From NCBI GenBank assembly GCA_021850705.1, contig JAJZKU010000003.1, positions 1,987 through 65,986 on the forward strand: a stretch of 64,000 bases of DNA, read 5' to 3'. Below are positions 6,096-30,365 of this stretch, piece after piece. This DNA comes from Candidatus Micrarchaeota archaeon. Lineage in GTDB: Archaea > Micrarchaeota > Micrarchaeia > Micrarchaeales > CABMGC01. Positions within the stretch are counted from its first letter, which is position 1. Each line of letters starts with the position of its first letter. Below the pieces are notes generated by a model that worked only from the letters and a program-made list of their open reading frames with translations, was not told where the DNA came from and did not search any database. A program made the translations under genes and the position numbers.

Positions 6096-7664
6096 TCAGT
6101 CAGGCTTTGAGACCATGAAGGTCTTTGGGTCATATTTGGCATTGTCGTTGACTATCTGCATTACCTTGTCCCTGTTCTTGTAATAATTTGCGATGACAGA
6201 ACCCGATTCGTTCACAGAGAGTACGTCGTTAGCAAGCATCCAGTTGAGTACTTTTGACTTCTCCCCAATGTCCTCTATTACCTCATTCTTCGTATATCCG
6301 CTATACAGGGATATAGTGTCAACCAGTCTTGTCAGTTCGGATACCTGCACAAAGGAATCTCCTCTCAGATTCCATCTGTAAATGACATTAGCCTCTCCAT
6401 TCTTTTCTATCTCTCCAAACTCAAAGAGCCTTCTTATTCCCAGCCTTCTGTGCCTGAAGAGAGCTATTATGCCCCCTATGGCGTTAAGCATTATCTTGGG
6501 TATCTCTATTGGCGGATTGGTCATTCTTATTATCGCATCCTCTGCGTTATCCGCGTGAAGCGTTCCATACACGGAGTGTCCGGTATGCACTGCCTCGAAG
6601 AGAGTCTCAGCATCCTTCTTGGTTCTTATCTCTCCCACAATTACTATATCGGGACGCTGCCTCAACGCGTTTATCATAAGGTTGTAAAGTACTATCTCTC
6701 CTTTACCTTCGGGGTTTGCCTGCCTCGTAAGCATGGGCACCCACTGCACAAAATCAGGTATTGTGAGCTCCTTGGTCTCTTCGATAGTTATCACTCTCCT
6801 GTTTGCAGGTACGAATATCGACATGGCATTGAGGAAGCTTGTCTTTCCGCTTGCGGTTCCGCCGCTGACTATCAGACTTATCTCATTCTGCACGCAGAGC
6901 CATATGAGTGATGCAATCTCGGGGGATATCTCCTTGCTCTTTATGAGAAGCGGCATCGTCCAGGGGTTCTTGGAGAACTTTCTTATTGTTATCGTATTTC
7001 CTTTCTGTGATATCGGGAACAAGGTGGCATTTACTCTTGAACCGTCAGGAAGCTCTGCATCCATGAGCGGGGCTATGTTGTTTATCTGCCTTCCAACCAG
7101 TCTTCCTATATGCTCCGAGATGTCGTATATGGTTGCCTCGTCGAATATCCTGACGTTTGATTTGCACCAGCCGAACTTCTTGTGGAATATCCATATCGGC
7201 TCTTTCGCAGTGTTCACTGTAATCTCTTCAAGATGGTCGTCAGCGATGAATACCTCAAGGTCGCCCATTCCAAGCATCATATTCTTTATGTAAGAGATAA
7301 GTGCATCCTTTATCGATTCTTCAGTGCCTGGAAGATACTTGTTTATTATAAGATTGGCGGCTTCTATGTACTTTTCCCTCATCTTTTCCATATACTCTGT
7401 ATTTGTGACCTTTGAAGTGTCTATAGGCACAAGCGAAAGCAACTCTGGCTTTATCGACATAAGAAGTATCCTTGTTGCATCTCCTATACCTGGCATGTTG
7501 ACTTCGTATATGGGTACGAACTCTCCCTTGTCTATTATGTTTATGTTTGCAGTCATTCCCTGTACATTAAGCGTATACGATTCGTAAATCCCATTTGCAT
7601 CGGGCTGAGGCCCCACCCTCTTGCTTATGTCCTCCTGATCCTCTTTCTTATCAACCAACAACAC
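6096..7664 (-). CDS. Secretion traffic ATPase, VirB11/TadA/FlaI family
   Basis: DAELPDGSRVNA, ITIRKF, Walker A GGTASGKT, Asp box TIEETKEL, ALRQRPD..VGEIR, His box TGH..GTLHAD. Confidence 0.93.
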   Translation of the reverse strand: MLLVDKKEDQEDISKRVGPQPDANGIYESYTLNVQGMTANINIIDKGEFVPIYEVNMPGIGDATRILLMSIKPELLSLVPIDTSKVTNTEYMEKMREKYIEAANLIINKYLPGTEESIKDALISYIKNMMLGMGDLEVFIADDHLEEITVNTAKEPIWIFHKKFGWCKSNVRIFDEATIYDISEHIGRLVGRQINNIAPLMDAELPDGSRVNATLFPISQKGNTITIRKFSKNPWTMPLLIKSKEISPEIASLIWLCVQNEISLIVSGGTASGKTSFLNAMSIFVPANRRVITIEETKELTIPDFVQWVPMLTRQANPEGKGEIVLYNLMINALRQRPDIVIVGEIRTKKDAETLFEAVHTGHSVYGTLHADNAEDAIIRMTNPPIEIPKIMLNAIGGIIALFRHRRLGIRRLFEFGEIEKNGEANVIYRWNLRGDSFVQVSELTRLVDTISLYSGYTKNEVIEDIGEKSKVLNWMLANDVLSVNESGSVIANYYKNRDKVMQIVNDNAKYDPKTFMVSKPD

Positions 7665-7666
7665 AC

Positions 7667-8869
7667 CTACTTGCCAAGCTCCTCTACCTTCTTGGTAAGC
7701 TCTTCGGAATGTGCGGTCATGGTAGCCATGAGTTCCTTGGCTTTTCTTGCTCTGGCTTCGAACTTCAGCATCGCTTCATCCCTCTTTGCATCAGACATCT
7801 TCGATGATAATGCCCTTATGCCATCAAGTATGCTGCCCAGCTCCTTATTCAGGGCACTCTGTTCCTCTTTTATGGTGTCAAGGTCTGCCTGTACCTCTCC
7901 TACGCTGCTTGCAAGAGTCGCTCCCTTACCGACCTTGACCTTTATATCGGCTATATTCTTCTTTATGAAGCTGAAATCCGCTTCTGACGCCTTGGTTATC
8001 GCATCCATCTCATTCCTGTATCTTGTTATCTCATCGACAAAACGCTCTGCCCTTTTTGCAGCGCGCTGTCCGCTCAATCTTGAGTCCTTGTAATACTTCG
8101 AGCTTTGCTCCTGGACGCTCTGTATCTGCTGCGCCTGCAGCTTTGCAAGCTCCGAAAGCTCCTCTATCTTCAGCAGTATCTTGTCAGATTGTGCTTTCGA
8201 GAGCTTCCTGTACTCCTCTATGCTCTTCTCGTTTGCCTTGTTGAATGCGTTCAGTCCTTCCCTGAATATGCTTATCTCATTCCTTATATCCTGTATCATG
8301 GCGTTTGCTCCTGAGCTGTCGAGGCTGAACTTGTTGACGCTCTCAGAGTATTTGTTAATATCCGCAAGGCTTGCGTCTATAACTGCCTGGAGCTTTTCCA
8401 GCTCCGTCCTTCTTGCATCTATCCTTTTGTATGCCTTCTCCACTCTTCTCTCTATGTCGGAGATGCGCTTTATCGAATCATACATCTGCTTGTTCTTCGT
8501 CTTGAAGAGCTCCTCTATGCCCTTCATGGATTTTGAGTATTCGTCTATCTGCCTTGTAACTCTGTTTAATACCGCATCCTGCGCAGATACGTCTGCAACA
8601 AGGTCTGCCTTCTTTACCTCGTCAACTCTCTTCTGCGCTTCTACCACATCGGCGCTCTTGGAAGTGCTGTCTGCAGGAGTTACATACATCTTTCCAAGCT
8701 TATACGTTATCTTTACTATATTGGCCTTTTCAAGGATCTTGACAAGATCCGTCATCGTGTCCTCTCCTATTCCCAGGTTTGCCGAGAGAAGGGAAACCTC
8801 TGTCTCCCCATTCTTCTTAATATATGCGACAAGTCGGTCAACGCTAGTCTCTATAGATTTATCAGCCAC
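7667..8869 (-). CDS. N-terminal winged-helix plus long coiled-coil protein
   Basis: ETSVDRLVAYIKKNGE...LVKILEKANIVKITY followed by >300 aa of heptad-like charged helix; 2 nt upstream of the ATPase gene. Confidence 0.75.
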   Translation of the reverse strand: MADKSIETSVDRLVAYIKKNGETEVSLLSANLGIGEDTMTDLVKILEKANIVKITYKLGKMYVTPADSTSKSADVVEAQKRVDEVKKADLVADVSAQDAVLNRVTRQIDEYSKSMKGIEELFKTKNKQMYDSIKRISDIERRVEKAYKRIDARRTELEKLQAVIDASLADINKYSESVNKFSLDSSGANAMIQDIRNEISIFREGLNAFNKANEKSIEEYRKLSKAQSDKILLKIEELSELAKLQAQQIQSVQEQSSKYYKDSRLSGQRAAKRAERFVDEITRYRNEMDAITKASEADFSFIKKNIADIKVKVGKGATLASSVGEVQADLDTIKEEQSALNKELGSILDGIRALSSKMSDAKRDEAMLKFEARARKAKELMATMTAHSEELTKKVEELGK

Positions 8870-9144: not shown

Positions 9145-9615
9145 ATGAATTGGACTACAATAAGGACAGCTTTGGTAAAAGCAATGACGATGAATAAGAT
9201 GCTGCTTATCGCAGCTATGTTTGCAGGAATGGTACTTGCATCTGCCCAATATACTTTAGGCACTGGTGGTCTAGGTAGTCTAGGTGGATCTAGCCCAAAC
9301 ACACAGGGAATCAATACCTCACTCTGTCATGTTATTCAAGGGGTGCAACAGGTAGTTGCAGTAGTGTCAATACTGCTCTTCGTACTGGGAGGTCTTATGT
9401 ATGCAATAGCGCATATGATGCCTGCAGCTGGACAGCTCAGAGGAAACCTGCAGGGTTGGTCTATGGGAATGATAGTAGGAGGAATAGTAGGTCTGATACT
9501 TGTACTCCTGGCTCCAGGACTGGTAGGCTTCATAGTTGCTAACGGACAAGCTGCAGGAGGAGCAGTAACATCAGCAACATGCAGCAGCTTTGGCATTAAC
9601 CTTGGTGCTTTATGA
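9145..9615 (+). CDS. VirB2/TrbC-like (CedA1/TedC-like) pilin
   Basis: Signal peptide ending ASA, amphipathic helix, then two hydrophobic helices separated by a short loop with Arg (LFVLGGLMYAIAHMMPAAGQLRGNLQGWSMGMIVGGIVGLILVLLAP); no class III prepilin motif. Confidence 0.75.
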   Translation: MNWTTIRTALVKAMTMNKMLLIAAMFAGMVLASAQYTLGTGGLGSLGGSSPNTQGINTSLCHVIQGVQQVVAVVSILLFVLGGLMYAIAHMMPAAGQLRGNLQGWSMGMIVGGIVGLILVLLAPGLVGFIVANGQAAGGAVTSATCSSFGINLGAL

Positions 9616-9761: not shown

Positions 9762-10508
9762 GTGCTTGCTGACTCTTTTGAAACTTACAAGTCAAACATA
9801 AGGCTCGTCATTCTCTTCTCAATACCCTTCATAATCGCATTCCTAATTCCTTTAATAGCCGTACATGATGCATATGTAAGTGCCGGAGGGATCTTCCTCA
9901 GGACTGCAAACCTATTCCACAATCCAACCCCACTGGGATTGAGCATAATAGCGATTGCGGAGTTCTTCTCCCTCTTATTCATCAGCCTTGCATTCGTGCT
10001 GATAAGCCTTATAGTCAAATCGAAGAGGACCCATGTGCGCATAGGGCAGATGGCCTTCAAGGAGATAGAGAAGAACATAAGCAAAGTCTTCGTAGTATTG
10101 CTGATATACACATTCATACTACTGCTTGCAAACATAGCCGGATATTATCTTGGATATGAAGCTCTATTCACAATAGTGGTTGGGATTGTAGGCATAATAC
10201 CTATCTTTTATGTCCCAAGTGCTATAGTGGTAGATGGCAAGAGCATATCAAGGGCTGTCAAGGAGAGCCTAAAGCTGATAGCACGGGAGCCACAGTACTT
10301 CCTGATATGGATAGTAAGTGCAATAGTGGTAATATTCATAGTTGATTTTGCATCAATACTCGGATCAATAGCCATTCTCGGACCACTGACAGGAACTGTT
10401 GTATCAGAGTATCTTGTATTGATCTTAAACTCATTATTCATACTGCCATACTTCATAATCTTCATAGCCGAGGCATACATGAAGAAGTTCAAGCTCCTCA
10501 AGCACTGA
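9762..10508 (+). CDS. Polytopic membrane protein (about 6 TM)
   Basis: Hydrophobic throughout; motif YVPSAIVVDGKSISRAVKES typical of generic 6-TM membrane domains; TTTATAAATA box at 9711-9720. Confidence 0.75.
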   Translation: MLADSFETYKSNIRLVILFSIPFIIAFLIPLIAVHDAYVSAGGIFLRTANLFHNPTPLGLSIIAIAEFFSLLFISLAFVLISLIVKSKRTHVRIGQMAFKEIEKNISKVFVVLLIYTFILLLANIAGYYLGYEALFTIVVGIVGIIPIFYVPSAIVVDGKSISRAVKESLKLIAREPQYFLIWIVSAIVVIFIVDFASILGSIAILGPLTGTVVSEYLVLILNSLFILPYFIIFIAEAYMKKFKLLKH

Positions 10509-10545: not shown

Positions 10546-11838
10546 ATGCGACTGCAAGCTCTTGTATTATTAACGGCATTTGCAATACTCACAGGGCTTC
10601 TCCACGCATCGCTCTTTATCACTCCTCCTGGATATTATACGCTGGTATCAAACTCTCCAAAACCATGCACGCCTGTACTAACTACAGGGGGTTCAATCCC
10701 AAGCGCTGAGAGCGGAGGGGCAATCCTGACCTCTCTTCCTGCAAACTCTTACGTGATCGGATTTGTAATGCTTGCACTTGTCCTGTCGATAATGGTCGTA
10801 GCTATTGTCTACATGATAGGAAAACTCTTTCCAAGCACGGGACTTCTAGGCTGGGTAAATCAGGAGTACTGGGAGATTGCAAAATCAGGCATCATAGTGG
10901 TCATAATATTCGCATTGCTTCTATTCATTAGCAATATCGGAGTAGCACTGACAAACACTCCTGTCACAGCTTACAGTAAAACAGACACTTACCTAAACAA
11001 CATGAACGGACTGGTCTATTCATCCGAAACATATCTGCTTACGGCTGACTCATATGTAGCTGCGGGCTGGTGCACTCTTGGCAGCGTAAATTTCGGAGTT
11101 GCTCTTCTGAATTCCTTAAAAATAGAGTACTATGTTCCAATACCTATACCTATAATATTCGCTGGCTTTAAGTTCGGCACAGAGTTCTCAATTCTATCTA
11201 CTCCCACACTTCTGGCTGGCAATGATAATACTATAAGCCAATTTAATTCAATGACGGTAGATCTTATCACAGGGTTGTACTATCCTGTCTCAATGATAAT
11301 ACTCATGTTAATAGAAGCACTACCAATACTCGTGTGGATAGGTCTCGGTTTCCTCATACCTATTGGGCTTGTATTTAGGGCACTGCCTATTCTAAGAGGA
11401 ATAGGAGGTACGCTTATAGCAACAGGCATCGCGATGGCAGTTCTATTGCCCATGGTATTAGTTGTATTCAATTATCCTGTAACACAGGTCTTCCAAGGCA
11501 TACTGCCTATACAGACTACAACACCTTCATCAACATGCAATTTCCACAGCACTGTGCTAAGCTATGCATGTAAGGCATTCATGTTTGTAATAAACAGCGA
11601 GAGCGCTGTAGTAACAAATGGGGTCAGGATAGAATATTCGCTTGGATGGGGCTTTTCTGCATTCAATGGCCTGTACACGATACTCAACGTGCTTACTCCG
11701 TACTCTGTATTCATGATGCTCCAGTTAATCTTATTCATCCTGGATATAATAATAATCAATGCAATAGCAGACAATATAGCAAAGGCGCTTGGAGGAGGAA
11801 TAAAATTAAACCTTGGCGGTAAGTTAAAACTCATATAG
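10546..11838 (+). CDS. VirB6/CedA-like polytopic membrane protein, paralogue 1
   Basis: Signal peptide, TM hairpin YMIGKLFP..GWVNQEYWE, conserved GLVFRALPILRGIGGTLIA..P motif, C-terminal IAKALGG. Confidence 0.7.
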   Translation: MRLQALVLLTAFAILTGLLHASLFITPPGYYTLVSNSPKPCTPVLTTGGSIPSAESGGAILTSLPANSYVIGFVMLALVLSIMVVAIVYMIGKLFPSTGLLGWVNQEYWEIAKSGIIVVIIFALLLFISNIGVALTNTPVTAYSKTDTYLNNMNGLVYSSETYLLTADSYVAAGWCTLGSVNFGVALLNSLKIEYYVPIPIPIIFAGFKFGTEFSILSTPTLLAGNDNTISQFNSMTVDLITGLYYPVSMIILMLIEALPILVWIGLGFLIPIGLVFRALPILRGIGGTLIATGIAMAVLLPMVLVVFNYPVTQVFQGILPIQTTTPSSTCNFHSTVLSYACKAFMFVINSESAVVTNGVRIEYSLGWGFSAFNGLYTILNVLTPYSVFMMLQLILFILDIIIINAIADNIAKALGGGIKLNLGGKLKLI

Positions 11839-11845: not shown

Positions 11846-13006
11846 ATGTTTTTCTTGTTTGCAACTAGTACTTCATATGTCGGGTGCAGCTTCGGCGGCG
11901 TAGATGCAAATAACTGGGTGCAGATAAACGCATTGCTGCTTGTCATCGCAATATCGCTTGGCGGCGTATTCTATGCTTTTAGCAACATCCTTCCGCCTTC
12001 CCAGAGCGAGAAGATGAAGGGCATGGTAAAAGCCGAGATCTTCCAAGGTATAATAGGTATAGTTATAGTAAGTATACTGCTAACATCTGCAGTAGCATGG
12101 TGCAACATCGGTTCTTCTCTAACAGGCTCTGCTGGTTTAGGCACAAGCAATCCTATGTCATTCTCAGAATCCTATCTGCAGAACCTTCTGTTCACCAAAG
12201 GCTTTTCCCTATTCGGATCTCTTTATTCAGAGTCTGCCCTTTTAATGATTGACGGCATTCTTGTATCACATATAGCAACTTTTCTGCAGCGCATAGAAGA
12301 AAGCTTCCTACCAGTTCAATTAACACTGTCACAAGGTATTGCAAATACTCTTGAGACATACTCACTTTCTTTTGGCGGAACCTTCTTTACCATATTTTCA
12401 ATAGTGTCTGGTATAGTCTTTGTAATATATCTTACACTGCCAGTGGTATCTTCGATTGCACTTACCGTTGTAGTGCCAACTGCGATAGCTATGCGCATGA
12501 TTCCTTTCTTCGGACCTAAAGTACGTGAGGTATCAGATGCTTTCCTGTCAATAGCGATAGCAGCATACTTCATCTTTCCTTTGATGATAGTGATGAACAG
12601 CCTTCTTGTGTCCTATCTATATACACCTTGTGGTACTTCCTTATCTGCCTGTAATCCTTACTCCAGTTACTTGGGCAGCTATTCTCTGCAAAGCTTGCCT
12701 GTGAATTCATTCTTCAATACCCCTGCAACATCCTTAGGTGGCGGATTTTCCCTGCCAGAAAACTTCTTTGCAGGAATAATAAGTGGTAACGGCGGCATTC
12801 TGGGTACTTTAGAGGCACTGTTTAATAACATCGCATTTTTCCCCCAGGTGCTTGCGAGCTTCTCCCAGAATGTAGCTCTATTTATATTCCAAGGAGTATT
12901 TCTTATAGGGCTCGACATATTGGTTACAGTTGCATTTGCGCAGGCGCTTACCCGTGGACTAAATTCGGTATCTACATATGTTTCTGGTGGAGGTTTCTGG
13001 GGTTGA
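11846..13006 (+). CDS. VirB6/CedA-like polytopic membrane protein, paralogue 2
   Basis: FYAFSNILP..KAEIFQ hairpin; AMRMIPFFGPKVREVSDAFLSIAIAAYFIFP. Confidence 0.7.
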   Translation: MFFLFATSTSYVGCSFGGVDANNWVQINALLLVIAISLGGVFYAFSNILPPSQSEKMKGMVKAEIFQGIIGIVIVSILLTSAVAWCNIGSSLTGSAGLGTSNPMSFSESYLQNLLFTKGFSLFGSLYSESALLMIDGILVSHIATFLQRIEESFLPVQLTLSQGIANTLETYSLSFGGTFFTIFSIVSGIVFVIYLTLPVVSSIALTVVVPTAIAMRMIPFFGPKVREVSDAFLSIAIAAYFIFPLMIVMNSLLVSYLYTPCGTSLSACNPYSSYLGSYSLQSLPVNSFFNTPATSLGGGFSLPENFFAGIISGNGGILGTLEALFNNIAFFPQVLASFSQNVALFIFQGVFLIGLDILVTVAFAQALTRGLNSVSTYVSGGGFWG

Positions 13007-13012: not shown

Positions 13013-14626
13013 ATGAAACTATACGCAATACTCTTATTATTCCTCTTGGCCACAGTTATCCCATATGCCATAGTGCAGGCATCAACTACAAACTTAATAA
13101 CTCCTTCAACAAATCTTAACGTATGGCTGCCAGTGATTGTAGCAGGTCTTGTGCTAAGTTTTGCGATGATAGGCATATACTACATGGTAGGATACCTGTT
13201 CAATAACAAGACAATAAGGGCCGGGGCAACCGTAGAATTCGGCAAGTTAATAGGCATAGCCATAGTCATAATGCTAATAATCTGGATATTCTATGTATTT
13301 GGTTCTACGATTCAGTTTACCTCCCATACTGGTCAGGCTCAGATAACCACCGTCTGCAATCAGCTGTCTAATTCAGAGATAAATTTCCTTAGCACGAATA
13401 ATCTGATAAGCCCCATGCCTCCAGGAGCAACAATATGCAATGACGTAATAGATCCATCTTCAACTACAAACGCTCTTACAAGAAACATAGATTACGGGCT
13501 AGGATCAGTTTATGTGATTGAAGATAATCTGACAAATCAATCTGTTACCTCTCTAAACGCAGTATATATGTTCTCTTCGATGCTGGCTTTTCTAAAGGAC
13601 TACAAGATAAAAGATACAGTGTGCTTCCCTGTAGAGTGTCTGATACCTGATGCGCCAAGCCTGTTCGGCCTAAACATACAATCGTCACCTTTTTCAGGAT
13701 ACCAGATAGCTAACACTGTGCCAGGAGCACTTGGGATAGAAGCCAACATAATATTCTACTTCCTACTCTTCCAGCTTGTGTTGATAATGCTTATGCTGCT
13801 TTTATGGCCGTATCTTCTTGCGGCAGGGCTGATATTCGAGACTAACATGTTCACAAGAAGGATAGGCGGATTTCTGATAGCTATGGTCATATCAAGCATG
13901 CTAGTCTACCCAACCATATTTCTATTCGAGTATACCTCCCTTAATAACATAGGGAATCTTCAGCCGTATGGCGCCTCATCTATACCTAACCTTGCACTAT
14001 GCGGTGCGCCTCTCGGTTCAACAGTATACCTCACACCTCAACTTACTGGCAATGTGAATACAGGAGTATTCTGTTATACAGAGGCAAAACAACTGCCACT
14101 TAGCTATATATACAAAGCCACTCTTCCAGACCAGTACACGAACATGGTGCCAAAAATATACTCTAAATATCCTCCAAACACGATGGTGCCTGCATGTCCA
14201 ACGAAGAACGCAGAAGGGCTATGCTTTTTCCAGAAAAATCTCAATTTCTATGTATTTCCAAATATGGAAGACATTCTAAATCTCTATTTCACATGGCCTG
14301 CTGGAGGCAATCTGTTAAGCTTCGAAGCAATATTCATAGTTCCAGGAGTGAGCACCCTGGCAAACGTTGCAAATGCAATTGCTTCGTTTACCAGTCTTCT
14401 ATCAGGTAATTTCATAGGATCGTTCCCATCATTTTCATATTACTATGTTAATCCGACACACACTGTAGCTGCGATACTTGCTCTTATCAACGTATATGCC
14501 ATAGAGGCTGTTACAGGTTTTATATTGCCAATATTCAACACACTTATACTGATATCATCCATATTAGAGATATCAAAACTTCTGGGAGGAGAAGGAAACA
14601 TACTTGGACTTGGTAAATTCATATAG
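13013..14626 (+). CDS. VirB6/CedA-like polytopic membrane protein, paralogue 3 (large Cys-containing external loop)
   Basis: YMVGYLFNN..TVEFGK hairpin; FTRRIGGFLIA..YP; C-terminal ISKLLGG. Confidence 0.7.
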   Translation: MKLYAILLLFLLATVIPYAIVQASTTNLITPSTNLNVWLPVIVAGLVLSFAMIGIYYMVGYLFNNKTIRAGATVEFGKLIGIAIVIMLIIWIFYVFGSTIQFTSHTGQAQITTVCNQLSNSEINFLSTNNLISPMPPGATICNDVIDPSSTTNALTRNIDYGLGSVYVIEDNLTNQSVTSLNAVYMFSSMLAFLKDYKIKDTVCFPVECLIPDAPSLFGLNIQSSPFSGYQIANTVPGALGIEANIIFYFLLFQLVLIMLMLLLWPYLLAAGLIFETNMFTRRIGGFLIAMVISSMLVYPTIFLFEYTSLNNIGNLQPYGASSIPNLALCGAPLGSTVYLTPQLTGNVNTGVFCYTEAKQLPLSYIYKATLPDQYTNMVPKIYSKYPPNTMVPACPTKNAEGLCFFQKNLNFYVFPNMEDILNLYFTWPAGGNLLSFEAIFIVPGVSTLANVANAIASFTSLLSGNFIGSFPSFSYYYVNPTHTVAAILALINVYAIEAVTGFILPIFNTLILISSILEISKLLGGEGNILGLGKFI

Positions 14627-14633
14627 TGTTTTT

Positions 14634-20054: not shown

Positions 20055-20894
20055 TTACTCATCATTCTCCTTATTTTTATGTATCATCTTTTCCAGTTTG
20101 CTAAAAACTAAGCCTGGCAACGATATCAAATAAAAAATAACATATCCTGCTCCCATGAGTGCAGCTCCGCCAATTCCGATAGCCCCAAGAAAACCAATGA
20201 ACCAAACCATGCCTGGCCGAGATTCATTTGAAGCTACCACATTTTTTTCACTTTTCTCAATGGGATATTCTGAAATCTGGCCCATGTGATTACCTCTAAT
20301 GTTAGTTACTTCTCTGACTTGTGTATTACTAATCGAAGTTCGATTAGGTACTTCATATTGCAATTTTTTCCCTGTCATATCCATATATACAAAATTTATC
20401 CTGTTTACTGCAAAACTATTATTTTCAGCCTCTGCTTTTCTCGAAGAAATCAAAAGAAGATTCTCAGCCCCTTTAACATTCCCATGAGCTATATCTCTAA
20501 AAGTCGCAATGACATAGGGTCCCAATCGCTGATCATATAATAGCGGATATAATGTATTAAATATCAATTCCTTAGCTTTAACCGGTACATTATCTGAATT
20601 CGTTACAATTCTATTTGTTGAAATATATGAAGTTTGTATAATTGTCCCTGTATTTATATGGTCACTTTTATACGATTCAGAAATGGCCTCATTTACAAAT
20701 AATCTCTCCCTATCATCACTTTTAGTCTGTCTTATCTCCATCTTTAGTATATCTGGCAATAACAAGTCACTTTCTCTTTTTACATATAAATCTTTATATA
20801 AAATTGCACATGATAGCAGTGCTCCTGTCATTATTGGAACTAATCTCTGTTTTTTAAAATTATCCATTTTTTCCACTTTCGTTTGCCGCTTCAA
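20055..20894 (-). CDS. Hypothetical 2-TM protein, AT-rich cassette paralogue B
   Basis: LYPLLYDQRLGPYVIATFRDIAHGNVKGAENLL shared domain; TMs near both ends. Confidence 0.75.
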   Translation of the reverse strand: MKRQTKVEKMDNFKKQRLVPIMTGALLSCAILYKDLYVKRESDLLLPDILKMEIRQTKSDDRERLFVNEAISESYKSDHINTGTIIQTSYISTNRIVTNSDNVPVKAKELIFNTLYPLLYDQRLGPYVIATFRDIAHGNVKGAENLLLISSRKAEAENNSFAVNRINFVYMDMTGKKLQYEVPNRTSISNTQVREVTNIRGNHMGQISEYPIEKSEKNVVASNESRPGMVWFIGFLGAIGIGGAALMGAGYVIFYLISLPGLVFSKLEKMIHKNKENDE

Positions 20895-22044: not shown

Positions 22045-23028
22045 ATGATATGGCTTCTGGGACTCATGCACCTTATGCTGTCGCTTGGGGACGTAGACGC
22101 ACTGATACCAATAATCATAATACTCATACTGATAGCTGCAGCAGGAGGGCTTACAAGGGGCTTTGATATATTCAGTTTATTCGGTCTTGGCACACTTGCA
22201 GGCATAGGACTTGGCAGCAGGGGATCCATGGCATCAAGAAAGACTGGCGCATTCGATAAAAGCAATAAACAATATGCAGCAGGATTTAAATCAGACAGTA
22301 CGTCAGGTCCTAGTCTAATTTCAGGGAGTCATCAAACCTATAAGGCACTTTCAGGTAAGGCTAAGGCAGGAACCTCCAATCCTAGCAGAGATCTTATACC
22401 TGGTCCAAATGTATTGACTAAAGGTGCAGCTATAGGCTCTTCCCCACTTGTGATATCAAAAGCTGCAGCGATAGGTACAGGTGCAATGACAGTCAAACAG
22501 ATGAATGACCATATAGCAAACAGGGTAAGAATGGCAGTACTAAATCCTGAAAAGTATGGGCCTAAAAAAAGAACGGTTGAGCAGCCTTCTTATCCTGGTA
22601 AACCAAACACTCTTCCATTTTCAAGCACTGATAACGCGGTCGGATGGTTGCTTTCCGGTAGCAGCGGAGCTGCGCTAAAAACATCCCGTATGCGACAACT
22701 AGCTGCAAATGATCCTGCAGCATTTAGAAAGGAGTATAACAAAATAGTAAGAAGAGAACTATACCGGCACATGGTCAATAACAAAATGATCGAAAACGGA
22801 TCTTCTTTCAGGATGCCTAGTGATAAAGAGCGTATGAAAATGAGATACTCCCGAAACATATACGCTGAACGAGCTAAAGCTATCCGTAGAAACGCAACAT
22901 ATAAAGCTAATCTCCCCCCAACATTTAATGTAAAAATGCCAGGGGTCAAGATATCTAAAAACTTTAACGAAATCAACGGCAGCATCTTAGGTAAGCAATT
23001 TAATATTAAGAAAAAAGAGAAAAAATAG
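22045..23028 (+). CDS. Membrane protein with N-terminal hydrophobic segments and long basic low-complexity tail
   Basis: IPIIIILILIAAAGGLTRGFDIFSLFGLGTLAGIGLG then a G/S/A-rich, K/R-rich tail. Confidence 0.7.
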   Translation: MIWLLGLMHLMLSLGDVDALIPIIIILILIAAAGGLTRGFDIFSLFGLGTLAGIGLGSRGSMASRKTGAFDKSNKQYAAGFKSDSTSGPSLISGSHQTYKALSGKAKAGTSNPSRDLIPGPNVLTKGAAIGSSPLVISKAAAIGTGAMTVKQMNDHIANRVRMAVLNPEKYGPKKRTVEQPSYPGKPNTLPFSSTDNAVGWLLSGSSGAALKTSRMRQLAANDPAAFRKEYNKIVRRELYRHMVNNKMIENGSSFRMPSDKERMKMRYSRNIYAERAKAIRRNATYKANLPPTFNVKMPGVKISKNFNEINGSILGKQFNIKKKEKK

Positions 23029-23088: not shown

Positions 23089-23910
23089 TTGAACAAGAAC
23101 TTTTCTTTCCTGATATTCTTGGGCCTGCTTTCAGGATCTTTCATATGTGCAGTAATAATCGGCATACTGCCTCCGGGATATGAGATAGTTGCAATAATTC
23201 TGGCAGTAATAGGGCTTCTTTTCGATGTAATCGCCGCATCTGCCAGGTTCTATTCATATTACTTCGTTCCGTTTATCAAGCGCAAGAACAATGTGGTTAC
23301 GCTGAGCCATGAGCCACCATTCTACGTAACAGCTTCGGGAAATGCGATAATAGTAAAAGAGGAAGACAACACTTATGCGAGTGTCTTTGTAAAGATACCT
23401 GTCTATCTATCCTCAACAGAGATGTCTGACGAGGAGAAGCTCAATTTCGCAAGGTCATTCTCGAAGATGATAACTGTTAACAGCAGATATCCGATGAAAC
23501 TGGCATCGCAGCTCTATTACCTTAACAAGGACGAGTACATACGCAGGATAAGTGCAAAGCTGAATGAAGTTGAAGACAAGTACGACAAGCTTAAGGCAGA
23601 CAAGACCACGCCTGACAAGCTTCTGGAGCGCGTAGAAGGGGAGTTGGCAATGTGGCACAACCTCTTCGATGGGGTTAACAAGTCGCCTTCGCAGAACCAG
23701 ATGGCATATGCTATGGTAAGCGCTCCTGGTGCGAACGAAGAGGAAGCCGTAGCGATAGCGATGCAGCGCGCGGAGGAGGTTGCAGCAGGAGCCGGCTCAA
23801 TTTTTGGTGTGACTGCAAGCATAGCTACTGGAGAGGAAATGCTTGTGTTTGTAGAGCCGGAATACAGTATACCTCCTGCAACGATAAGCGAGCTTCTTAA
23901 GAAGGGATGA
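23089..23910 (+). CDS. 2-TM protein resembling a detached VirB4/TcpF N-terminal region, paralogue 1
   Basis: Two N-terminal TMs then an alpha/beta domain with a coiled-coil insert; TTG start; overlaps next gene by 4 nt (ATGA). Confidence 0.65.
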   Translation: MNKNFSFLIFLGLLSGSFICAVIIGILPPGYEIVAIILAVIGLLFDVIAASARFYSYYFVPFIKRKNNVVTLSHEPPFYVTASGNAIIVKEEDNTYASVFVKIPVYLSSTEMSDEEKLNFARSFSKMITVNSRYPMKLASQLYYLNKDEYIRRISAKLNEVEDKYDKLKADKTTPDKLLERVEGELAMWHNLFDGVNKSPSQNQMAYAMVSAPGANEEEAVAIAMQRAEEVAAGAGSIFGVTASIATGEEMLVFVEPEYSIPPATISELLKKG

Positions 23911-24737
23911 GCATGGATGAAGAGACAATATTCAGGGTTGGAATTACATCAATACTTGCATTGATGTTCGCATCGTTCAGTGCAGCTTATGGTCCTTTGG
24001 ACATACTTGCAATAATACTCTTCCTAGTTGCATTCATTCTGATAATGATCATAAGCTTCGCAGATTTCTTACTCTTCCCGATATTCACAAGGCTTCTCAA
24101 GGTCAGTACAATTCCTGCAAGGGATTACACGATTCCGAAAGAGAATGACGGGATAGTAAAGTATGCCAACGGTCTTTACTACGCTACGGGATATCTTACT
24201 GCCAATGTCTATAACTACGTCTTCCAGGCTGAGCAGATGATAGAAGGCGAGGAGAGCGAGATGGTGATGGGGCCTGACAAGTGGGAGAAAGCCGTAATGA
24301 GCGTAAAATTCCCATTCAAATTCATAGCGATAGGCCAGGCTGTAGATATACAGAAGTACAGGGATGACCTGGAAGGAAGAAGGGCATATCTCGAATTCCA
24401 ATACTCAAAAAGCGAGAGCGCCCCCAATGTCTCTACTTCGGTCCTCGATGACCTAAAAAGAAGAACGCGAGTGCTTCAGGTAAGGATAGACAGGCTTGGA
24501 GCCGGTGAGAGGCCTCTTAGCAGCATGATGTACATAGAGACAACAGCAGTAGGGATAACAATGAGTGATGCCATGAATAAACTTACCCAGCAGACAGACC
24601 AGTTGCAAACGGTATTCAATGTATTCGATCTTGACCTGATAAGGGTAGTGGGCAGGGAGATGTACAGCCTTTACAAGCTGAATTATTACATACCAACCAT
24701 GGAAGAGATTATATCATCATTCCAGTTCCAAAAATGA
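23907..24737 (+). CDS. 2-TM protein resembling a detached VirB4/TcpF N-terminal region, paralogue 2
   Basis: Alignable by eye to 23089..23910 along its length; RLGAGERPLSSMMYIETTA. Confidence 0.65.
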   Translation: MSMDEETIFRVGITSILALMFASFSAAYGPLDILAIILFLVAFILIMIISFADFLLFPIFTRLLKVSTIPARDYTIPKENDGIVKYANGLYYATGYLTANVYNYVFQAEQMIEGEESEMVMGPDKWEKAVMSVKFPFKFIAIGQAVDIQKYRDDLEGRRAYLEFQYSKSESAPNVSTSVLDDLKRRTRVLQVRIDRLGAGERPLSSMMYIETTAVGITMSDAMNKLTQQTDQLQTVFNVFDLDLIRVVGREMYSLYKLNYYIPTMEEIISSFQFQK

Positions 24738-24805
24738 TAACTAAATAATATGTCCGAACAATGTTTATGTGAACGATTATGGGATTGATAAGGATACAGA
24801 ATGTA

Positions 24806-26284
24806 ATGAGCAATGAACTTGCAAAGCGCGTCTTCCTTAGCAGGCCTCCGGAGCCTCCGCCAGAATTCCTTCTCAACGATCCTACAGACTCTATCTTCAT
24901 AGGGATAACCAGAAGATTTGGCGTGCCGCTTACGTGGACGTTTGCCACTCTGACAAACCCTCACATATCTGTAGTAGGAATAACAGGAGCCGGAAAGTCC
25001 TTCTTCGTAAAGACCTTCCTGATACGCGCTAGCTACGTATGGAATGCAAATGCGATAATAATAGACTGGGCCGGAGAGTACAAATCATGGGTAGCGCAGA
25101 GCGGAGGCAAGATTGTCGCTCTTGGAAAGGGCGATTTCATAAATATAATGGACCTTGCGGGAATGAAGCCCTTGGACAGGGCAAAGCAGATAATGAATGC
25201 GCTTGACATACTCACCGATATTACCAGCTTCGCGGAGCAGAGAAGACTTACAGCAGAAGCTATAGAGCAGACTTACGTCAACGCAGGCTTCCCACTAACC
25301 CAGATCCCAAAGGATGGGAAGGATGCCCCTACCCTGAAGAACGTTACCGCTCTGCTTGAGGAGAAGCTTGGTGAGGGCAATTATGCATATCCTGCCGAGC
25401 TCGAAAATGCCATATATAGATTAAGAGAGTTCTCAAGGGAGGGAGAAGACTACTTTGCAAGGAAGAGCACAGTCGATCTTGACAAACTCATCACATCAGG
25501 CCTTGTAGATCTTGACCTTTCCGGCCTTCCAGATGAGAGATTCAGGGCGCTTGCAGGGCTATTCATACTGCAGACACTGAAGGAGAAGATGCGCTTTGAG
25601 GGATGGAGTCCCAGCAAGGGGCTAAAGGCAATAATAGTTCTTGACGAGGCATGGAAGATAGCCAGCGATGAAAGGAGTGATGCGATTACTATAATAAGAG
25701 AGGGAAGAAAGTACCAGTTCGGTCTCATAGTTGCATCGCAGAACCCTACGGATATAAACGAAGCCATATTCTCAAACGTAGGCACATCAATAATACTAAG
25801 GATAAGGTTCGAGAAGTTCCTCGACTACCTGCAGGGATCACTCGGCTTCACGGCTTTCATGAGGGATGAGATAAGCAGGTTCGGAGTAGGGCAGGCGGCG
25901 ATAGACCTCTCATTCCAGACGTCTATAAAATTCCCTTCGGTATTCATAATAGAGCACATAATCGGAGAGATGCCTCTAAACGTCTATGCGATAACGCTTG
26001 GGGACATACTTCAGGAAAGCGAGATGAATGATACGAACATACAAAAGGACTATTATCTAAAGAAGATGGATATAACTGCAAAGCTGGTAAGGACAAATGC
26101 CAACATGGACACAATAAACAGCATAATATTTGACATGGACAAGGCAAACAGGTCAGTAGATGTGAAGAGCCTGGTAACAATACTTGCCAAGAACAATATA
26201 AATCGTGAAGCCATAATACAATTCTTAAGGGAAGTAGGGATACCTGATAATATTATAAGCAGAGTGTTCATATATACAAGGTGA
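24806..26284 (+). CDS. VirB4/HerA-FtsK family ATPase (CedB-like)
   Basis: NPHISVVGITGAGKS (Walker A), IIDWAGEY, PTLKNV, IVLDEAW (Walker B), REGRKYQ..ASQ. Confidence 0.9.
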   Translation: MSNELAKRVFLSRPPEPPPEFLLNDPTDSIFIGITRRFGVPLTWTFATLTNPHISVVGITGAGKSFFVKTFLIRASYVWNANAIIIDWAGEYKSWVAQSGGKIVALGKGDFINIMDLAGMKPLDRAKQIMNALDILTDITSFAEQRRLTAEAIEQTYVNAGFPLTQIPKDGKDAPTLKNVTALLEEKLGEGNYAYPAELENAIYRLREFSREGEDYFARKSTVDLDKLITSGLVDLDLSGLPDERFRALAGLFILQTLKEKMRFEGWSPSKGLKAIIVLDEAWKIASDERSDAITIIREGRKYQFGLIVASQNPTDINEAIFSNVGTSIILRIRFEKFLDYLQGSLGFTAFMRDEISRFGVGQAAIDLSFQTSIKFPSVFIIEHIIGEMPLNVYAITLGDILQESEMNDTNIQKDYYLKKMDITAKLVRTNANMDTINSIIFDMDKANRSVDVKSLVTILAKNNINREAIIQFLREVGIPDNIISRVFIYTR

Positions 26285-26288: not shown

Positions 26289-26588
26289 ATGGCAGGAACC
26301 TACATGATAAATAAGATAGAACTCAAGCGCATACTCAACTCGTTCGGGATTAACATAAGGAGCGTGGAAGGTACGCTAGGGGCGCTTGACAAGATGCACA
26401 AGAACGTCAACGCCATAGAGTTCGCAAAGATGCTCTTCGGGTTAGGGCTTAAACAGGTGCAGGTAGAGACCATATTAAGGAGAATCGGTATAGATGATCT
26501 TGCAATATCGGACATATTCGATAGGATAGACGAAGATAAGATACACCAGTCATTTGGAAGAGTAGTGGAACTCGGTGTAGACCTATAA
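26289..26588 (+). CDS. Small protein homologous to the C-terminal domain of the adjacent ATPase
   Basis: LDKMHKNVNAIEFAKML..ILRRIGIDDLAISDIF vs ATPase MDKANRSVDVKSLVTIL..FLREVGIPDNIISRVF. Confidence 0.75.
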   Translation: MAGTYMINKIELKRILNSFGINIRSVEGTLGALDKMHKNVNAIEFAKMLFGLGLKQVQVETILRRIGIDDLAISDIFDRIDEDKIHQSFGRVVELGVDL

Positions 26589-26600: not shown

Positions 26601-26981
26601 ATGCCAAGCAGCTATTGTATAATATGCGGTAAGAAGAAGAACGGGATAAAGGTTACCGACGACCATGTCTTAAAAACACTCCGCTGGTTCAAGACGAATA
26701 TCACAAAGAACGTGCAGAACAATACGCTTGTGGTGTGCAAGACCTGTTATCCGCAATACAGCAAGCAGCGCAAGAAGTATATAAGCAGAAGGACCGCATA
26801 CGTGGCTCTAGGTATCATCTTCCTTATATTATCAGTGATAATATCCTCTGGCGCATGGCTGACTGCATTATCGATAGGCATATTCATAGTGATACTTCTA
26901 TACGCATTATCGCTTATCAATTACATGCCTGGCTTACAGCTGAAGGGAGCAGACAAAAAGAGCGGACCTAGGAAGAAATAA
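26601..26981 (+). CDS. Zn-finger (CxxC..CxxC) 2-TM membrane protein
   Basis: CIICG...CKTCY then two TM helices; GGAG SD. Confidence 0.75.
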   Translation: MPSSYCIICGKKKNGIKVTDDHVLKTLRWFKTNITKNVQNNTLVVCKTCYPQYSKQRKKYISRRTAYVALGIIFLILSVIISSGAWLTALSIGIFIVILLYALSLINYMPGLQLKGADKKSGPRKK

Positions 26982-27036: not shown

Positions 27037-27762
27037 TTGGCTGAAGATACTATAGTGCTTCCAAAAGTGGAGGAATTGCAGCTTGACGGGAAGCTCAAGA
27101 CCTCATTCCCTGAAATTAAGGCAAAGCTCTCAAAGCTTCCTTTCTATGACGTGGGCTCAGATGCCAATTCCGTGACTGCGGCAAAGGTGGAGAGCAGGAA
27201 TATAGACAAGATGCCTTACCTGTTTCATATAGTGAAAATAAGCTCTAACAGCATAGACGTAAGTTATTCGATAATACCAGACACGAGCGAAAGCATGCGG
27301 AGAGCCTATGTTGTAAAGAATCTTGCAGGGATTCTTTCTCTGATAAGCAACGATTACGAGATTGATGTTCCGAAGTTCATGCAGTATGTTGACTCTACGC
27401 TTGGAAATCTTATAGATGGCATATCTCAGAATTACAACTTGCTGTACAACAAGTATGACGCGTTAACTGCAGAATACAGGGAGATAAAGAGGCTAAACAA
27501 TGAACTGGAAGCATCGAACAAGAACATTACCGTACAGATTACCCAACTAAGTGAGGACAACAAGGAACTTAAGGCAGAGCTGGACAAGCTTAAGAAGTAT
27601 TCTGACGAGGCTCTCATGGGGCTGGTTCAGGAATGGGTAGAGGTACACGATAATTCTATAGACACGGAGCAGTTTGCAAAGAACTATGCCGTATCGATAC
27701 CAAGAGTAGAACAGATACTGAACAAGATGGTTATGCAGGGCTATCTTGAGGTAAAGTCATAG
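27037..27762 (+). CDS. Coiled-coil protein with C-terminal winged-helix
   Basis: Heptad region LYNKYDALTAEYREIKRLNNELE..., C-terminal IDTEQFAKNYAVSIPRVEQILNKMVMQGYLEV; TTG start after GGAGG. Confidence 0.75.
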   Translation: MAEDTIVLPKVEELQLDGKLKTSFPEIKAKLSKLPFYDVGSDANSVTAAKVESRNIDKMPYLFHIVKISSNSIDVSYSIIPDTSESMRRAYVVKNLAGILSLISNDYEIDVPKFMQYVDSTLGNLIDGISQNYNLLYNKYDALTAEYREIKRLNNELEASNKNITVQITQLSEDNKELKAELDKLKKYSDEALMGLVQEWVEVHDNSIDTEQFAKNYAVSIPRVEQILNKMVMQGYLEVKS

Positions 27763-27917: not shown

Positions 27918-27941
27918 CTGTTTATTTTAGTGGTTAGGTTG

Positions 27942-30365
27942 ATGAAAAGGAGGAAGCTGTCCAAGGCAGTGATTATAGGGGTAATTGCAATAATTGTGAT
28001 AGCAATAATCTCAATCATACTTGTAGAGAACGCTATAAGCAGCGCCATAAGTTTGTATCATCCTCCTCTTCCTCCACATGCCATAAACAGCTCCTTAAGC
28101 ATGCAGAATGCATTTTTCGGGAATTATGCAAATTCAACAGCAATTGCAGCATATGCTAAACTAAACTATCATGAGACCAACGCTTCATATGCAGGCTTTA
28201 CCTTAAGAGTTTTCAAGACAAATCCTATACCAAAGATATACCTTGTAGATACGAACAACTACTGCATAAACTGCTTTCTGGGATCTACTATGCAACAATA
28301 TCTGCAGAATTATCTGAACCAGTTCGGTCTCCTTCTCAATCAGAGCAGCTTCAATTACATACAGCTTAACAATATGTCATCTGTGCCTCCGAATTCTATA
28401 ATTATAGTGCCTTCGGGGCTTATTCCATTATCATTTCTTCCAATACAGAACAGCTCTCTTAGCGGCTACAATGCATGCCCATTAAACTATAATTATAGCA
28501 TAATCAACATGCTCAATAAAGGAGATACTATATTCTATGTGGGTGACAACTTCTCCAGTACAGTTTCATGCGGCCAGCAGATAATACAGACTCCTCAAAG
28601 CATAATAAATCAATTGTCATCGATAGGCCTTGGCACAAGACCTGCAAATGCCACAGACATAACCACGGCAGAGCAGCAGACTTACCTTACCTTCAATTCA
28701 CCGACATTCTTATTCACAAGCGGATACGTTGGACCAAGCTCAACATACGTCAACGTTCTGAACGGCAGCGTAGTCGCACTTACTAACTATCCATCCAAAG
28801 GATGGAATAACGCATCTACTCTCTCACGGGATATAGCTGCATTAATTAACCTGCACTCCTGGAATGACGAACTGGCATCAGGCAGCACAGGAATCACTAA
28901 GATAACTAATAAGAGCTCATCAGGCCAGATTGGGCTGGTAACTAATACCACGCAGGCAAGCCTGCAGTCTCTTACGAATATATCTCTATCAAGTACATAT
29001 GTGTTAGGAACTTCATACTTCTATAACTCTGCGGGCGAGTTGAAGGAGAACAATATATTATTCAGGTTAAATGGGCTTGAAAACGGATACGTGAGCATTA
29101 CATCATCAGTTCCACAAACTGCAAGCGAATTCATAAGTGCCGGGGCAACAAATATAACAAACAACTTTGATTCGTTCCATATCTATATATATAATCTAAG
29201 CTATCAAAATCCGGTGCAGTACCTTTTTATAGGCCAGATGAAGCCAAACGTGACTTTCATAAAGCCGATATCATTCTCGCTTCCTGGTGGTTACTACGTA
29301 GCATCTCTCATAGACTCAAACAATGATACGTATGCGAGGGCGATATTCATGGTATATAATACGAGCATTACTCCAGTACGACCATTCTCCTTCAGCAACA
29401 GGACATTTACCTTCTCCGTCCATAGTGGAGGCTATCCCATTACTGGTATTCCATACAGCATATCCATTAATGGGCAGTATGTACAAAATGGCACCGTAAA
29501 CAACAGTATCATACAATATTCCCTGCCAGGAGGTTCGGTATTGAGCTACGGTAATGAGACATTCACTGTAAAAGTCCTAGGCTCTACAGAGACAATAATA
29601 ATGCCATACACTAACACAATATTCAACATACCTGCGTATTATATAGAGTTTGCCATAGCGGCAGTCGTCATAGTTGTACTTAATAAGATACTCATTCCTC
29701 CAAATATAGACAGATACTACATAAACGTGCAGGAATTCGGCCATACGGATAGGACAAAGGTCAAGGAGCCTCCAGAGACGATTCTTAAGGTATTCGACCA
29801 GGTAAATTACTATTATCATTGGAGATACATGCCTCTAACAGCTGAAGAGGTAAAGTCAGGCATATCCGGGAATGTTAGATATGGGAATATGCCTATAGCA
29901 GTGACATTGCAGAATACATATGCCGTTCTAAATAAGATGTCCAGAAAGGGACTTATAGTGGAAGCTGCAGATTATTATGCGCCAAAGAGCTGGGAAGAAA
30001 CATCAAAGCATGACATAGAGTATCTTGTAATATTCAGGAAGCTCAGGGACTACAGCGTATCTAACGCAATGCTCTTCACTGACATCGATGCGTACGACAA
30101 TGTAGACATGATGATAACCAACAAGGGCGTCCAGAACTACGTCTACATATACTCTAAGCTGTCAGAGAACCAGAAACTAAGAAACATACCTCTGGGAAAG
30201 AGCCACAGAACCTTTATCATCTTCTTAAACGAAGAGGACAGGTTCGCTTTCATAGACAGGCTTGATATCTCATATGGGGAAGAGAGCGAGATACTGAGGA
30301 TGAGTATAGACGCTTTAGACATAAGGCTGATAGACACCGATGATCTGACACAGCTCAAGCTCTAA
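27942..30365 (+). CDS. Large surface glycoprotein with two TMs and a ~220-aa cytoplasmic C-terminal region
   Basis: N-terminal TM, ~530 aa N/S/T-rich beta-rich ectodomain, TM YYIEFAIAAVVIVVL, cytoplasmic wHTH-like segment. Confidence 0.8.
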   Translation: MKRRKLSKAVIIGVIAIIVIAIISIILVENAISSAISLYHPPLPPHAINSSLSMQNAFFGNYANSTAIAAYAKLNYHETNASYAGFTLRVFKTNPIPKIYLVDTNNYCINCFLGSTMQQYLQNYLNQFGLLLNQSSFNYIQLNNMSSVPPNSIIIVPSGLIPLSFLPIQNSSLSGYNACPLNYNYSIINMLNKGDTIFYVGDNFSSTVSCGQQIIQTPQSIINQLSSIGLGTRPANATDITTAEQQTYLTFNSPTFLFTSGYVGPSSTYVNVLNGSVVALTNYPSKGWNNASTLSRDIAALINLHSWNDELASGSTGITKITNKSSSGQIGLVTNTTQASLQSLTNISLSSTYVLGTSYFYNSAGELKENNILFRLNGLENGYVSITSSVPQTASEFISAGATNITNNFDSFHIYIYNLSYQNPVQYLFIGQMKPNVTFIKPISFSLPGGYYVASLIDSNNDTYARAIFMVYNTSITPVRPFSFSNRTFTFSVHSGGYPITGIPYSISINGQYVQNGTVNNSIIQYSLPGGSVLSYGNETFTVKVLGSTETIIMPYTNTIFNIPAYYIEFAIAAVVIVVLNKILIPPNIDRYYINVQEFGHTDRTKVKEPPETILKVFDQVNYYYHWRYMPLTAEEVKSGISGNVRYGNMPIAVTLQNTYAVLNKMSRKGLIVEAADYYAPKSWEETSKHDIEYLVIFRKLRDYSVSNAMLFTDIDAYDNVDMMITNKGVQNYVYIYSKLSENQKLRNIPLGKSHRTFIIFLNEEDRFAFIDRLDISYGEESEILRMSIDALDIRLIDTDDLTQLKL

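Follow-up and report, generated by a model that had tools for sequence, protein, structure and literature searches.

A probable domesticated Ced-like type IV secretion machine with six channel paralogues and a three-gene VirB4 in Micrarchaeota

A 64,000-nucleotide stretch of a Candidatus Micrarchaeota genome (contig JAJZKU010000003.1 of assembly GCA_021850705.1, positions 1,987 to 65,986; hereafter "the window") harbors, between housekeeping genes, a cluster which a first-pass annotation described as a domesticated chromosomal type IV secretion system (T4SS) resembling the Ced and Ted systems. The locus raises the question of whether these genes do encode such a machine, which of them belong to it, and for what purpose a host-dependent cell might maintain it. 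All the open reading frames (ORFs) named in that annotation are present in the window, and we consider it very probable that the cluster encodes a domesticated machine of the T4SS/Ced type. A pilin, six membrane paralogues, two proteins with two transmembrane (TM) segments, one ATPase and the four genes 3' of it make up a module that belongs to the core gene set of Micrarchaeota; the pilin, the six paralogues, the VirB4/CedB-like ATPase and the conserved gene order bear out the previous description, whereas the VirB11-type ATPase that it included is not a member.

Composition of the core module

The gene at 9145..9615 (plus strand, like all the core genes below) encodes a protein of 156 amino acids (aa) with a signal-like N-terminus and two hydrophobic helices. 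This protein itself has no Pfam match; among the 13 members of its family, eight match TrbC (best E 4.5e-6) and eight match T4SS_pilin, and the family profile ranks the TrwL pilus chain 8s6h first of 18 rows (E 0.005), chains of CedA1 or TedC giving no direct match in the same search against structures. Judging from these profiles, the protein appears to be a VirB2/TrbC/CedA1-like pilin, that is, the VirB2/CedA1/TedC-like component of Ced and Ted systems. Within the locus it resembles A2, the second of the six paralogues (phmmer E 2e-4), and its profile weakly matches that of the sixth, A6 (probability 7.8%, E 0.004). A pilin-like N-terminus is in fact found in A2 and, weakly, in A6, and the N-terminus of CedA has been described as resembling a pilin (PMC9905601).

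The motor seems to be divided among three genes. B4 (24779..26284) encodes an ATPase of 501 aa devoid of TM segments, with intact Walker A and B motifs and a small helical C-terminal domain that is duplicated. It matches DUF87, AAA_10 and P-loop_TraG in Pfam, its best NCBIfam scores being those of CedD (65.8 bits) and CedB (64.8 bits), both far under the cut-offs; a plasmid search with B4 returned only bacterial ATPases at 24-28% identity. Upstream of B4 lie T1 (23089..23910, 273 aa) and T2 (23907..24737, 276 aa), two paralogues (hhalign probability 100% across 263 columns) that combine a 2-TM anchor with what is best read as half of a VirB4 N-terminal domain. A T gene is found directly 5' of B4 in 49 of the 54 core-ATPase (B4) loci on which the gene-neighbourhood counts given here are based, a few of these loci repeating the same contig. 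When the T2 model (predicted local distance difference test, pLDDT, 82) was compared with solved structures, the top 11 Foldseek rows were all R388 entries containing VirB4 (best E 0.011), and the best VIA-align match was TrwK 219-384 (Z 8.9, root-mean-square deviation, rmsd, 3.6, 164 residues), the other rows being mostly hairpins of 50-60 residues. The T2 profile did not match the full-length FATA-type VirB4 of another micrarchaeal locus, L169. Among the best 150 representatives of B4, seven longer proteins (P0181, P0182, P0186, P0188, P0189, P0205 and P0217, some with ~250 extra C-terminal residues) carry a T-family domain before the ATPase (E 6e-13 to 9e-5); CedB was the best match of the five that were scanned, along most of the model. 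Moreover, according to a published report, the N-domain of CedB and that of CedD each superpose on a different portion of VirB4's N-domain, and both are required for DNA import (PMC11868833). The fold of T2, the natural fusions and this superposition lead us to read T1 and T2 as two VirB4 N-domain halves detached from their ATPase, which might complement each other; the fold of one half is predicted from the T2 model. On this basis, the CedB-type ATPase with TM anchor and half N-domain is present in split form. Relatives of one fusion are labelled Thermoproteota, Bathyarchaeia, Brockarchaeota and Nitrososphaerota, and such fusions may mark undescribed Ced-like systems. In a few relatives (L103 in genome G006, P0142 and P0143), the core ATPase ORF reaches 1,026-1,196 aa and the ATPase is matched in two stretches; these enlarged ORFs possibly contain inteins.

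The six paralogues are encoded in tandem by A1 (10546..11838, 430 aa), A2 (11846..13006, 386 aa), A3 (13013..14626, 537 aa, with a Cys-rich outer insertion), A4 (14604..15794, 396 aa from a TTG codon, the probable start lying ~10 codons later), A5 (15810..16886, 358 aa) and A6 (16887..17975, 362 aa), which occupy positions 1 to 6 of the array in this order. They are distantly related to one another (pairwise BLASTP E 5e-8 to 0.05), and a pattern search revealed the motif G-x3-R...R-x2-G ahead of a TM helix in five of the six. The AlphaFold2 model of A6 (pLDDT 73) was aligned by VIA-align over 248 of 261 residues with the R388 stalk chain 7o3v_F (Z 8.4, rmsd 7.4, rank 4), which we take, from its residue range, to be TrwI/VirB6, and also with the DotA-IcmX channel 9ngy (Z 7.9, rank 7), both alignments being longer than those of the three rows ranked above 7o3v_F. 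In addition, an Atlas cluster related to A6 carries the CedA1 Pfam family on 23% of its members (score 0.91). These comparisons suggest, at moderate strength, that A1-A6 may be VirB6/CedA-like.

In intact arrays, the number and the order of these genes are fixed. Counting channel genes longer than 250 aa, 38 fetched stretches and the window hold exactly six, and none holds more; of the ten other stretches, five are cut by the end of the stretch or contig, two contain broken genes, one has five genes and a fragment, and two are single-gene operons. A tree, poorly supported in its deep branches, was built from seven single copies and the proteins of 26 arrays representing nine families; in it, the nearest neighbour from another family occupies the same array position for 155 of the 156 array proteins. 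Genomes with 12-18 channel matches carry entire additional arrays, so that two or three arrays can coexist with one ATPase. The six fixed positions, considered together with a ring-shaped ATPase, suggest that A1-A6 form a hetero-hexameric pore. A complex prediction with trimmed A4, A5 and A6 gave no answer (score 0.01, with no controls folded) and is evidence neither way.

Extra arrays are often followed by genes for secreted Cys-rich proteins of 1,000-1,900 aa, none of the five scanned having a Pfam match. Giant secreted proteins (1,300-1,900 aa), many of them with a Cys-rich N-terminus, are encoded beside six-gene arrays or directly upstream of the T-ATPase genes (L090:15173-19054, L095:14094-18419, L098:11939-17539, L072:266-9153 and L074:1413-5870), and they are candidate adhesins.

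Downstream of B4, the gene z1 (26289..26588, 99 aa) encodes a free copy of the C-terminal helical domain of the ATPase, matching B4 residues 425-497 (phmmer E 8e-4); it was found in the window's order, in two loci of family f6 and in one of family f3. The product of z2 (26601..26981, 126 aa; 3' of B4 in 48/54 loci) combines a zinc ribbon with four Cys and two TM segments, and that of z3 (27037..27762, 241 aa; 46/54 loci) an N-domain, a coiled coil and a winged-helix-like C-terminus, six of 17 z3 relatives giving weak EAP30/Vps36 matches. The last gene, BIG (27930..30365, 811 aa), lies downstream of B4 in 41/54 loci and encodes two TM segments around a large outer domain, in which 23 N-glycosylation sequons occur, followed by a conserved cytoplasmic tail; it has no match to any family or solved structure and is a candidate surface scaffold. 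Between the pilin gene and the array lies M (9762..10508, plus strand), whose product of 248 aa is, from hydropathy and synteny, a polytopic membrane protein with ~7 TM segments; M usually stands beside pilin and array, or between both, and gave no family match above E 0.007.

The VirB2-like pilin, the six tandem polytopic proteins, the paralogy of the two 2-TM proteins and the VirB4/HerA-type ATPase listed in the first-pass annotation are thus all confirmed by these data.

Distribution, missing parts and expression

B4 orthologues of full length (E of 3e-99 or lower) are present in 177 of 201 genomes sampled from the phylum and in 91 of the 92 that belong to the window's order; 14 genomes gave weak matches only and ten gave none. 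B4 is single-copy, its identity is 96% within the genus, ~70% within the family, 63% within the order and ~55% within the class, and its tree clusters by host family. When the 120 best relatives of one divergent ATPase were inspected, those bearing a name were all from Micrarchaeota. The order pilin, M, A1-A6, T1, T2, B4, z1, z2, z3, BIG recurs across the window's order, and family f6 shows the same order with M displaced, so that, within Micrarchaeota, the synteny check proposed for this cluster gave a positive outcome; elsewhere the arrays stand apart from a T-B4-z2-z3-BIG unit, which pilins often accompany. Of 54 genomes chosen for the search, 40 contain the channel family. The remaining 14 have neither a strong B4 match nor the T family (the search profile did match in ARM-1, used as positive control), which indicates that the parts are present or missing together. 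These 14 genomes, none of which has a channel, T or full-length ATPase match, belong to families f9, f14, f16, f17, f19, f21 and f25, and to f10 (4/6); such families may contact hosts in a different way or depend on them less.

No relaxase and no second coupling ATPase had been noticed within the window by the first-pass annotation, and two families of this kind were sought in whole genomes. The VirD4 family (PF02534) was found in none of 27 genomes (control positive in Sulfolobus, 5/14) and neither was the MOBP relaxase (PF03432, control positive); relaxase searches were limited to MOBP and Replic_Relax, and the result for the latter (0/27) is uninformative, its control being silent. ComEC was found in none of 12 genomes. 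The cluster contains no second ATPase of the CedD/TedD type; unlinked HerA-like ATPases are present in 5/5 genomes searched, and one of them could be the CedD counterpart. No att-type exact repeat occurs in positions 5000-32000 of the window, in agreement with the previous description, which had also reported no integrase; on the latter point the Pfam scan covers positions 1-35665, and ORFs past 36000 were listed without annotation. At L169:5438-8551, in genome G103, a pilin lies next to a FATA-type VirB4 that is complete in length and scores above the cut-off of the CD1110 family; this is a separate, probably mobile T4SS.

A second, minimal operon, composed of a pilin, one channel gene, one T gene and a shorter ATPase, was found in compact form in five genomes (G038, G042, G016, G100 and G201) and is intact in loci L136, L160, L161, L163 and L172; in G146 and G148 this four-gene form is the only copy found. 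The genome of the window carries, at one end of contig C19 (G000:C19:2-803, minus strand), the pilin gene of this operon and the beginning of its single channel gene, which runs off the contig.

Expression could be examined in ARM-1 (locus L064), the proteome of whose co-culture with Metallosphaera is available as Supplementary file 1 of PMC11329633; no DNA-damage treatment is described in the accessible part of that paper. Nine of the 14 orthologues were detected. B4 was represented by 33 peptides with a summed intensity-based absolute quantification (iBAQ) value of 2.3e9, about one fifth of that of ATP synthase subunit A (11e9; elongation factor EF-1alpha reached 30e9), and the values of the others were 2.5e9 for T1, 4.2e9 for T2, 0.7e9 for z1, 0.8e9 for z2, 1.7e9 for z3 and 0.8e9 for BIG. 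Among the channel proteins, A3 (BCS90915) gave four peptides (iBAQ 0.8e9) and A1 (BCS90913) a weak signal of three peptides (0.12e9). None of the four proteins of the minimal operon (BCS90954-57) was detected in this proteome. The B4 orthologue (L064:10001-11515, BCS90994) is annotated as the DNA-repair helicase HerA, a label that has kept the system hidden in the published tables.

Genes around and within the cluster

The ATPase gene at 6096..7664 (minus strand, 522 aa) had been regarded as the VirB11 of the machine. This assignment has to be abandoned: the protein scores best with FlaI (250 bits vs 133 with VirB11), its gene lies on the opposite strand, two T2SSF platform genes follow its orthologue in 10 of 11 neighbourhoods scanned, and the orthologue is present in 1/54 core-ATPase loci. 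The protein is an ATPase of the FlaI/TadA type that serves type IV pilus assembly; it stands outside the machine and adjoins the cluster only in this genus. Relatives occur in all 32 genomes searched, among them four in which the remainder of the machine is missing and which have five or six pilus-ATPase matches each. In the 19 genomes compared, this gene lies 16 kilobases (kb) from B4 within the window's genus, 18-21 kb from it in two genomes that share another genus and 51-555 kb from it in ten, the two genes lying on separate contigs in six. Its companion at 7667..8869 (minus strand), which encodes a coiled-coil protein of 400 aa, is also outside the machine, and a coiled-coil gene precedes the pilus-ATPase orthologue in 13 of 20 neighbourhoods. 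A FlaI/TadA-type ATPase with two T2SSF platform genes is the arrangement of archaeal type IV pilus systems, two of which have been described in Mia14 (PMC5498576); in the window's genus, by contrast, the ATPase gene has left the platform genes, which lie on contig C21 in the window's genome, and together with its coiled-coil partner now stands beside the cluster.

The cluster is less tightly packed than had been claimed, since three minus-strand genes (18210..21909) and a variable one (22045..23028) interrupt it. The former, collectively X, are membrane-anchored orphans of 425, 279 and 349 aa with a guanine-cytosine (GC) content of 0.32-0.34 and resemble one another (E 5e-11 and 1e-4). X occurs as a single copy at the same place in 5/54 loci, each with an ATPase at least 92% identical to that of the window, and it is a genus-specific insertion outside the core. 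The variable gene, Y (plus strand, 327 aa, 6/54 loci), encodes a basic membrane-anchored accessory protein. Both X and Y are found at their window place only in near relatives; in ARM-1 a Y relative, matched by mass in the proteome (iBAQ 0.8e9), sits before the array.

The core genes have a GC content similar to that of the genome, and the housekeeping character of the flanks was confirmed on both sides by the Pfam scan, with DUF373, Trm5 and ribosomal proteins as well as topoisomerase VI B. The latter adjoins the module at a constant place in many loci of the order, as judged from ORF sizes, its annotation being available only in the window and in ARM-1. A Ser/Thr/Asn-rich membrane-anchored surface protein of 399 aa with no family match is encoded at 147-1346, upstream of ribosomal protein L1. 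Two tRNA genes, tRNA-Pro(tgg) at 44964-45036 and tRNA-Lys(ttt) at 53730-53806, are distant from the cluster and show no link with it.

Possible function and its alternatives

The systems to which the cluster can best be compared are Ced (Sulfolobales and Desulfurococcales; CedA, A1, A2, B, D and E) and Ted (Thermoproteales) (PMC9905601, PMC11823120, PMC11868833). They share with it the chromosomal location, the lack of relaxase and VirB11, a VirB2-like pilin, a CedB-like ATPase, TM-anchored VirB4 N-domain halves and polytopic proteins with a pilin-like N-terminus that in the module are putatively VirB6-like. Since VirB11 is not a member of the machine, one of the two differences from Ced claimed in the first-pass annotation falls away. 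The other, concerning the channel proteins, takes the form of six position-fixed paralogues, with whole arrays duplicated in some genomes to 12-18 gene copies, whereas Ced has two (CedA and CedE), which have been proposed to hetero-oligomerise (PMC11868833). Furthermore, both N-domain halves are free here and serve a single anchor-less ATPase, instead of the pair of TM-anchored ATPases of Ced. The module also comprises four additional conserved genes, belongs to host-dependent cells, scores far below the CedB and CedD cut-offs, and is abundant although no DNA damage is reported. The cluster would represent a variant of the Ced/Ted kind lying below the family cut-offs, with DNA import as a candidate activity.

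The conjugative plasmid R388 (TrwL/VirB2, TrwM/VirB3, TrwK/VirB4, TrwI/VirB6) resembles the module in the pilin profile, in the fold of the VirB4 N-domain and, more weakly, in that of VirB6. It differs in that no relaxase, VirD4, VirB11 or outer-membrane parts were found here, VirB4 is distributed over three genes and six genes are VirB6-like; R388 VirB6 is encoded by a single gene and forms a homo-pentamer. A further parallel is offered by the chromosomal T4SS of Patescibacteria, which is likewise domesticated, lineage-wide, mostly relaxase-less and typical of small host-dependent cells, with VirB4, TrsD, PrgI/VirB3, VirB6 and VirB2-like parts (PMC12102498). That system is bacterial and FATA-related, whereas the proteins bridging the micrarchaeal one to known families point to CedB, and the accessible part of the same paper describes no counterpart of the six-gene array. 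The two cases are likely to represent parallel domestication. No paper on this system in Micrarchaeota was found in a search that extended to sources other than subscription papers; the CedA/CedE/VirB6 tree in the supplement of PMC11868833 may include micrarchaeal proteins, and the accessible part of the Mia14 paper mentions islands that carry type IV pili and 'likely conjugative elements', with no operon of this kind (PMC5498576).

We tentatively favour, with somewhat less than even confidence, the idea that the machine is a constitutive host-contact importer, most likely of DNA. The nearest characterised relatives import DNA, export parts and ComEC were not found, ARM-1 has no nucleotide biosynthesis genes (PMC11329633), and the module is abundant while the Ced-sized copy is undetected. 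Accordingly worded as a model, the vertically inherited chromosomal set would likely build an always-on channel at the contact with the host, through which imported host DNA would likely serve as a source of nucleotides. T1 and T2 would be anchored in the membrane and jointly rebuild the VirB4 N-terminal platform, beneath which the soluble B4 ring would dock; A1-A6, one copy each, would form a single VirB6/CedA-type hetero-hexameric pore matching the six-fold motor; the pilin might be extruded through the pore as a short conduit, and BIG or, in other families, the giant Cys-rich surface proteins on the array side might hold the host surface. A more elaborate version, which appears rather doubtful, would make the machine a feeding organ derived from a Ced-like device, with a hetero-hexameric pore in swappable six-gene cassettes, giant adhesins and a three-piece VirB4, pulling in nucleic acid or other polymers of the host and perhaps corresponding to the barrel of ARM-1 mentioned below, while the silent four-gene copy would keep the ancestral repair role.

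Several observations weigh against the import of host DNA through a pore of this type. Ced operates between cells of the same species, and its parts are used in the donor (PMC11868833); no CedD-like ATPase is linked to the module, and B4 by itself is inseparable from HerA. The Z value of 8.4 obtained for A6 falls in the generic range of helical bundles, the three chains that outrank 7o3v_F are unrelated, Foldseek gave no significant match for the A6 model (E 0.12), and NCBIfam CedA matches were nil among 23 members of the A6 family and 16 further channel proteins. In the ARM-1 proteome, the pilin (BCS91246), A2, A4 (accession inferred from gene order), A5 and A6 were not found, and A1 and A3 differ sevenfold in level, which is no demonstration of a 1:1 stoichiometry; hydrophobicity may explain both the undetected proteins and this gap. 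The nanotubes connecting ARM-1 and its host originate from the host (PMC11329633), for which reason we reject their identification with the pilus of this machine. Lastly, the module is missing from the tested genomes of eight sampled families of small or medium size and is therefore dispensable for a micrarchaeon.

Different activities, built on the same genes, must also be considered. The machine might export proteins into the host as an effector T4SS, an activity already suggested for symbiotic Patescibacteria and Nanohaloarchaeota; Patescibacteria retain their relaxase-less chromosomal T4SS, with parts that are essential for epibiotic growth (PMC12102498), effector secretion has been proposed for VirB4-like proteins of Nanohaloarchaeota (PMC10266531), and the constitutive abundance in ARM-1 and the variable orphans X and Y within the cluster would suit it. 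We regard this as unlikely, given that VirD4, the usual substrate receptor, is missing from all the genomes searched for it, that the nearest characterised relatives are importers and that X and Y bear membrane anchors. The coexistence of two or three arrays with one ATPase would instead suit alternative host-specific tips of an attachment or docking organelle, which would hold the host or receive its nanotube and pass small molecules with no active transport of DNA. Pilus assembly is normally powered by VirB4, giant Cys-rich secreted proteins adjoin many arrays, and the host nanotube docks at a 21-nm barrel of unassigned composition that lies in the envelope of ARM-1 (PMC11329633); yet the link with the barrel is a guess, adhesion could fall to the separately encoded type IV pili, and the relationship with CedB points to DNA, so that such an organelle seems quite improbable to us.

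We assign a similarly low likelihood to the exchange of chromosomal DNA between micrarchaeal cells for repair or recombination, with the host uninvolved. This would be the direct analogue of Ced and Ted, it would agree with the absence of ComEC, and wide tubes have been seen linking ARM-1 cells (PMC11329633); Ced, however, is induced by DNA damage, while the large set is abundant in an ordinary co-culture, and the undetected minimal operon fits an inducible Ced role better. As for an ordinary integrative and conjugative element or its remnant, the T4SS-type genes, the low-GC stretch within the cluster and the true FATA-type VirB4 of one relative (L169) might recall one. A single-copy ATPase shared by most of the phylum, with an identity that drops with taxonomic distance and a tree that follows host families, core genes of genome-like GC, the lack of MOBP relaxase, VirD4 and att-like repeats, and the constant place beside topoisomerase VI B make this origin extremely improbable, and we reject it.

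The means by which DPANN archaea draw building blocks from their hosts have long been in question, and the module, most of whose parts are expressed in ARM-1, brings named candidate proteins to this matter in a co-culture that has already been imaged: BCS90913-90918, BCS91020-21, BCS90994-90999 and BCS91246 of ARM-1, all of which, apart from the 'HerA' ATPase, are annotated as hypothetical. If the proposed assembly is correct, a six-subunit hetero-oligomeric VirB6 pore and a VirB4 made by three genes would represent architectures new to the T4SS superfamily, and the domesticated T4SS of Patescibacteria would have a parallel in this module.

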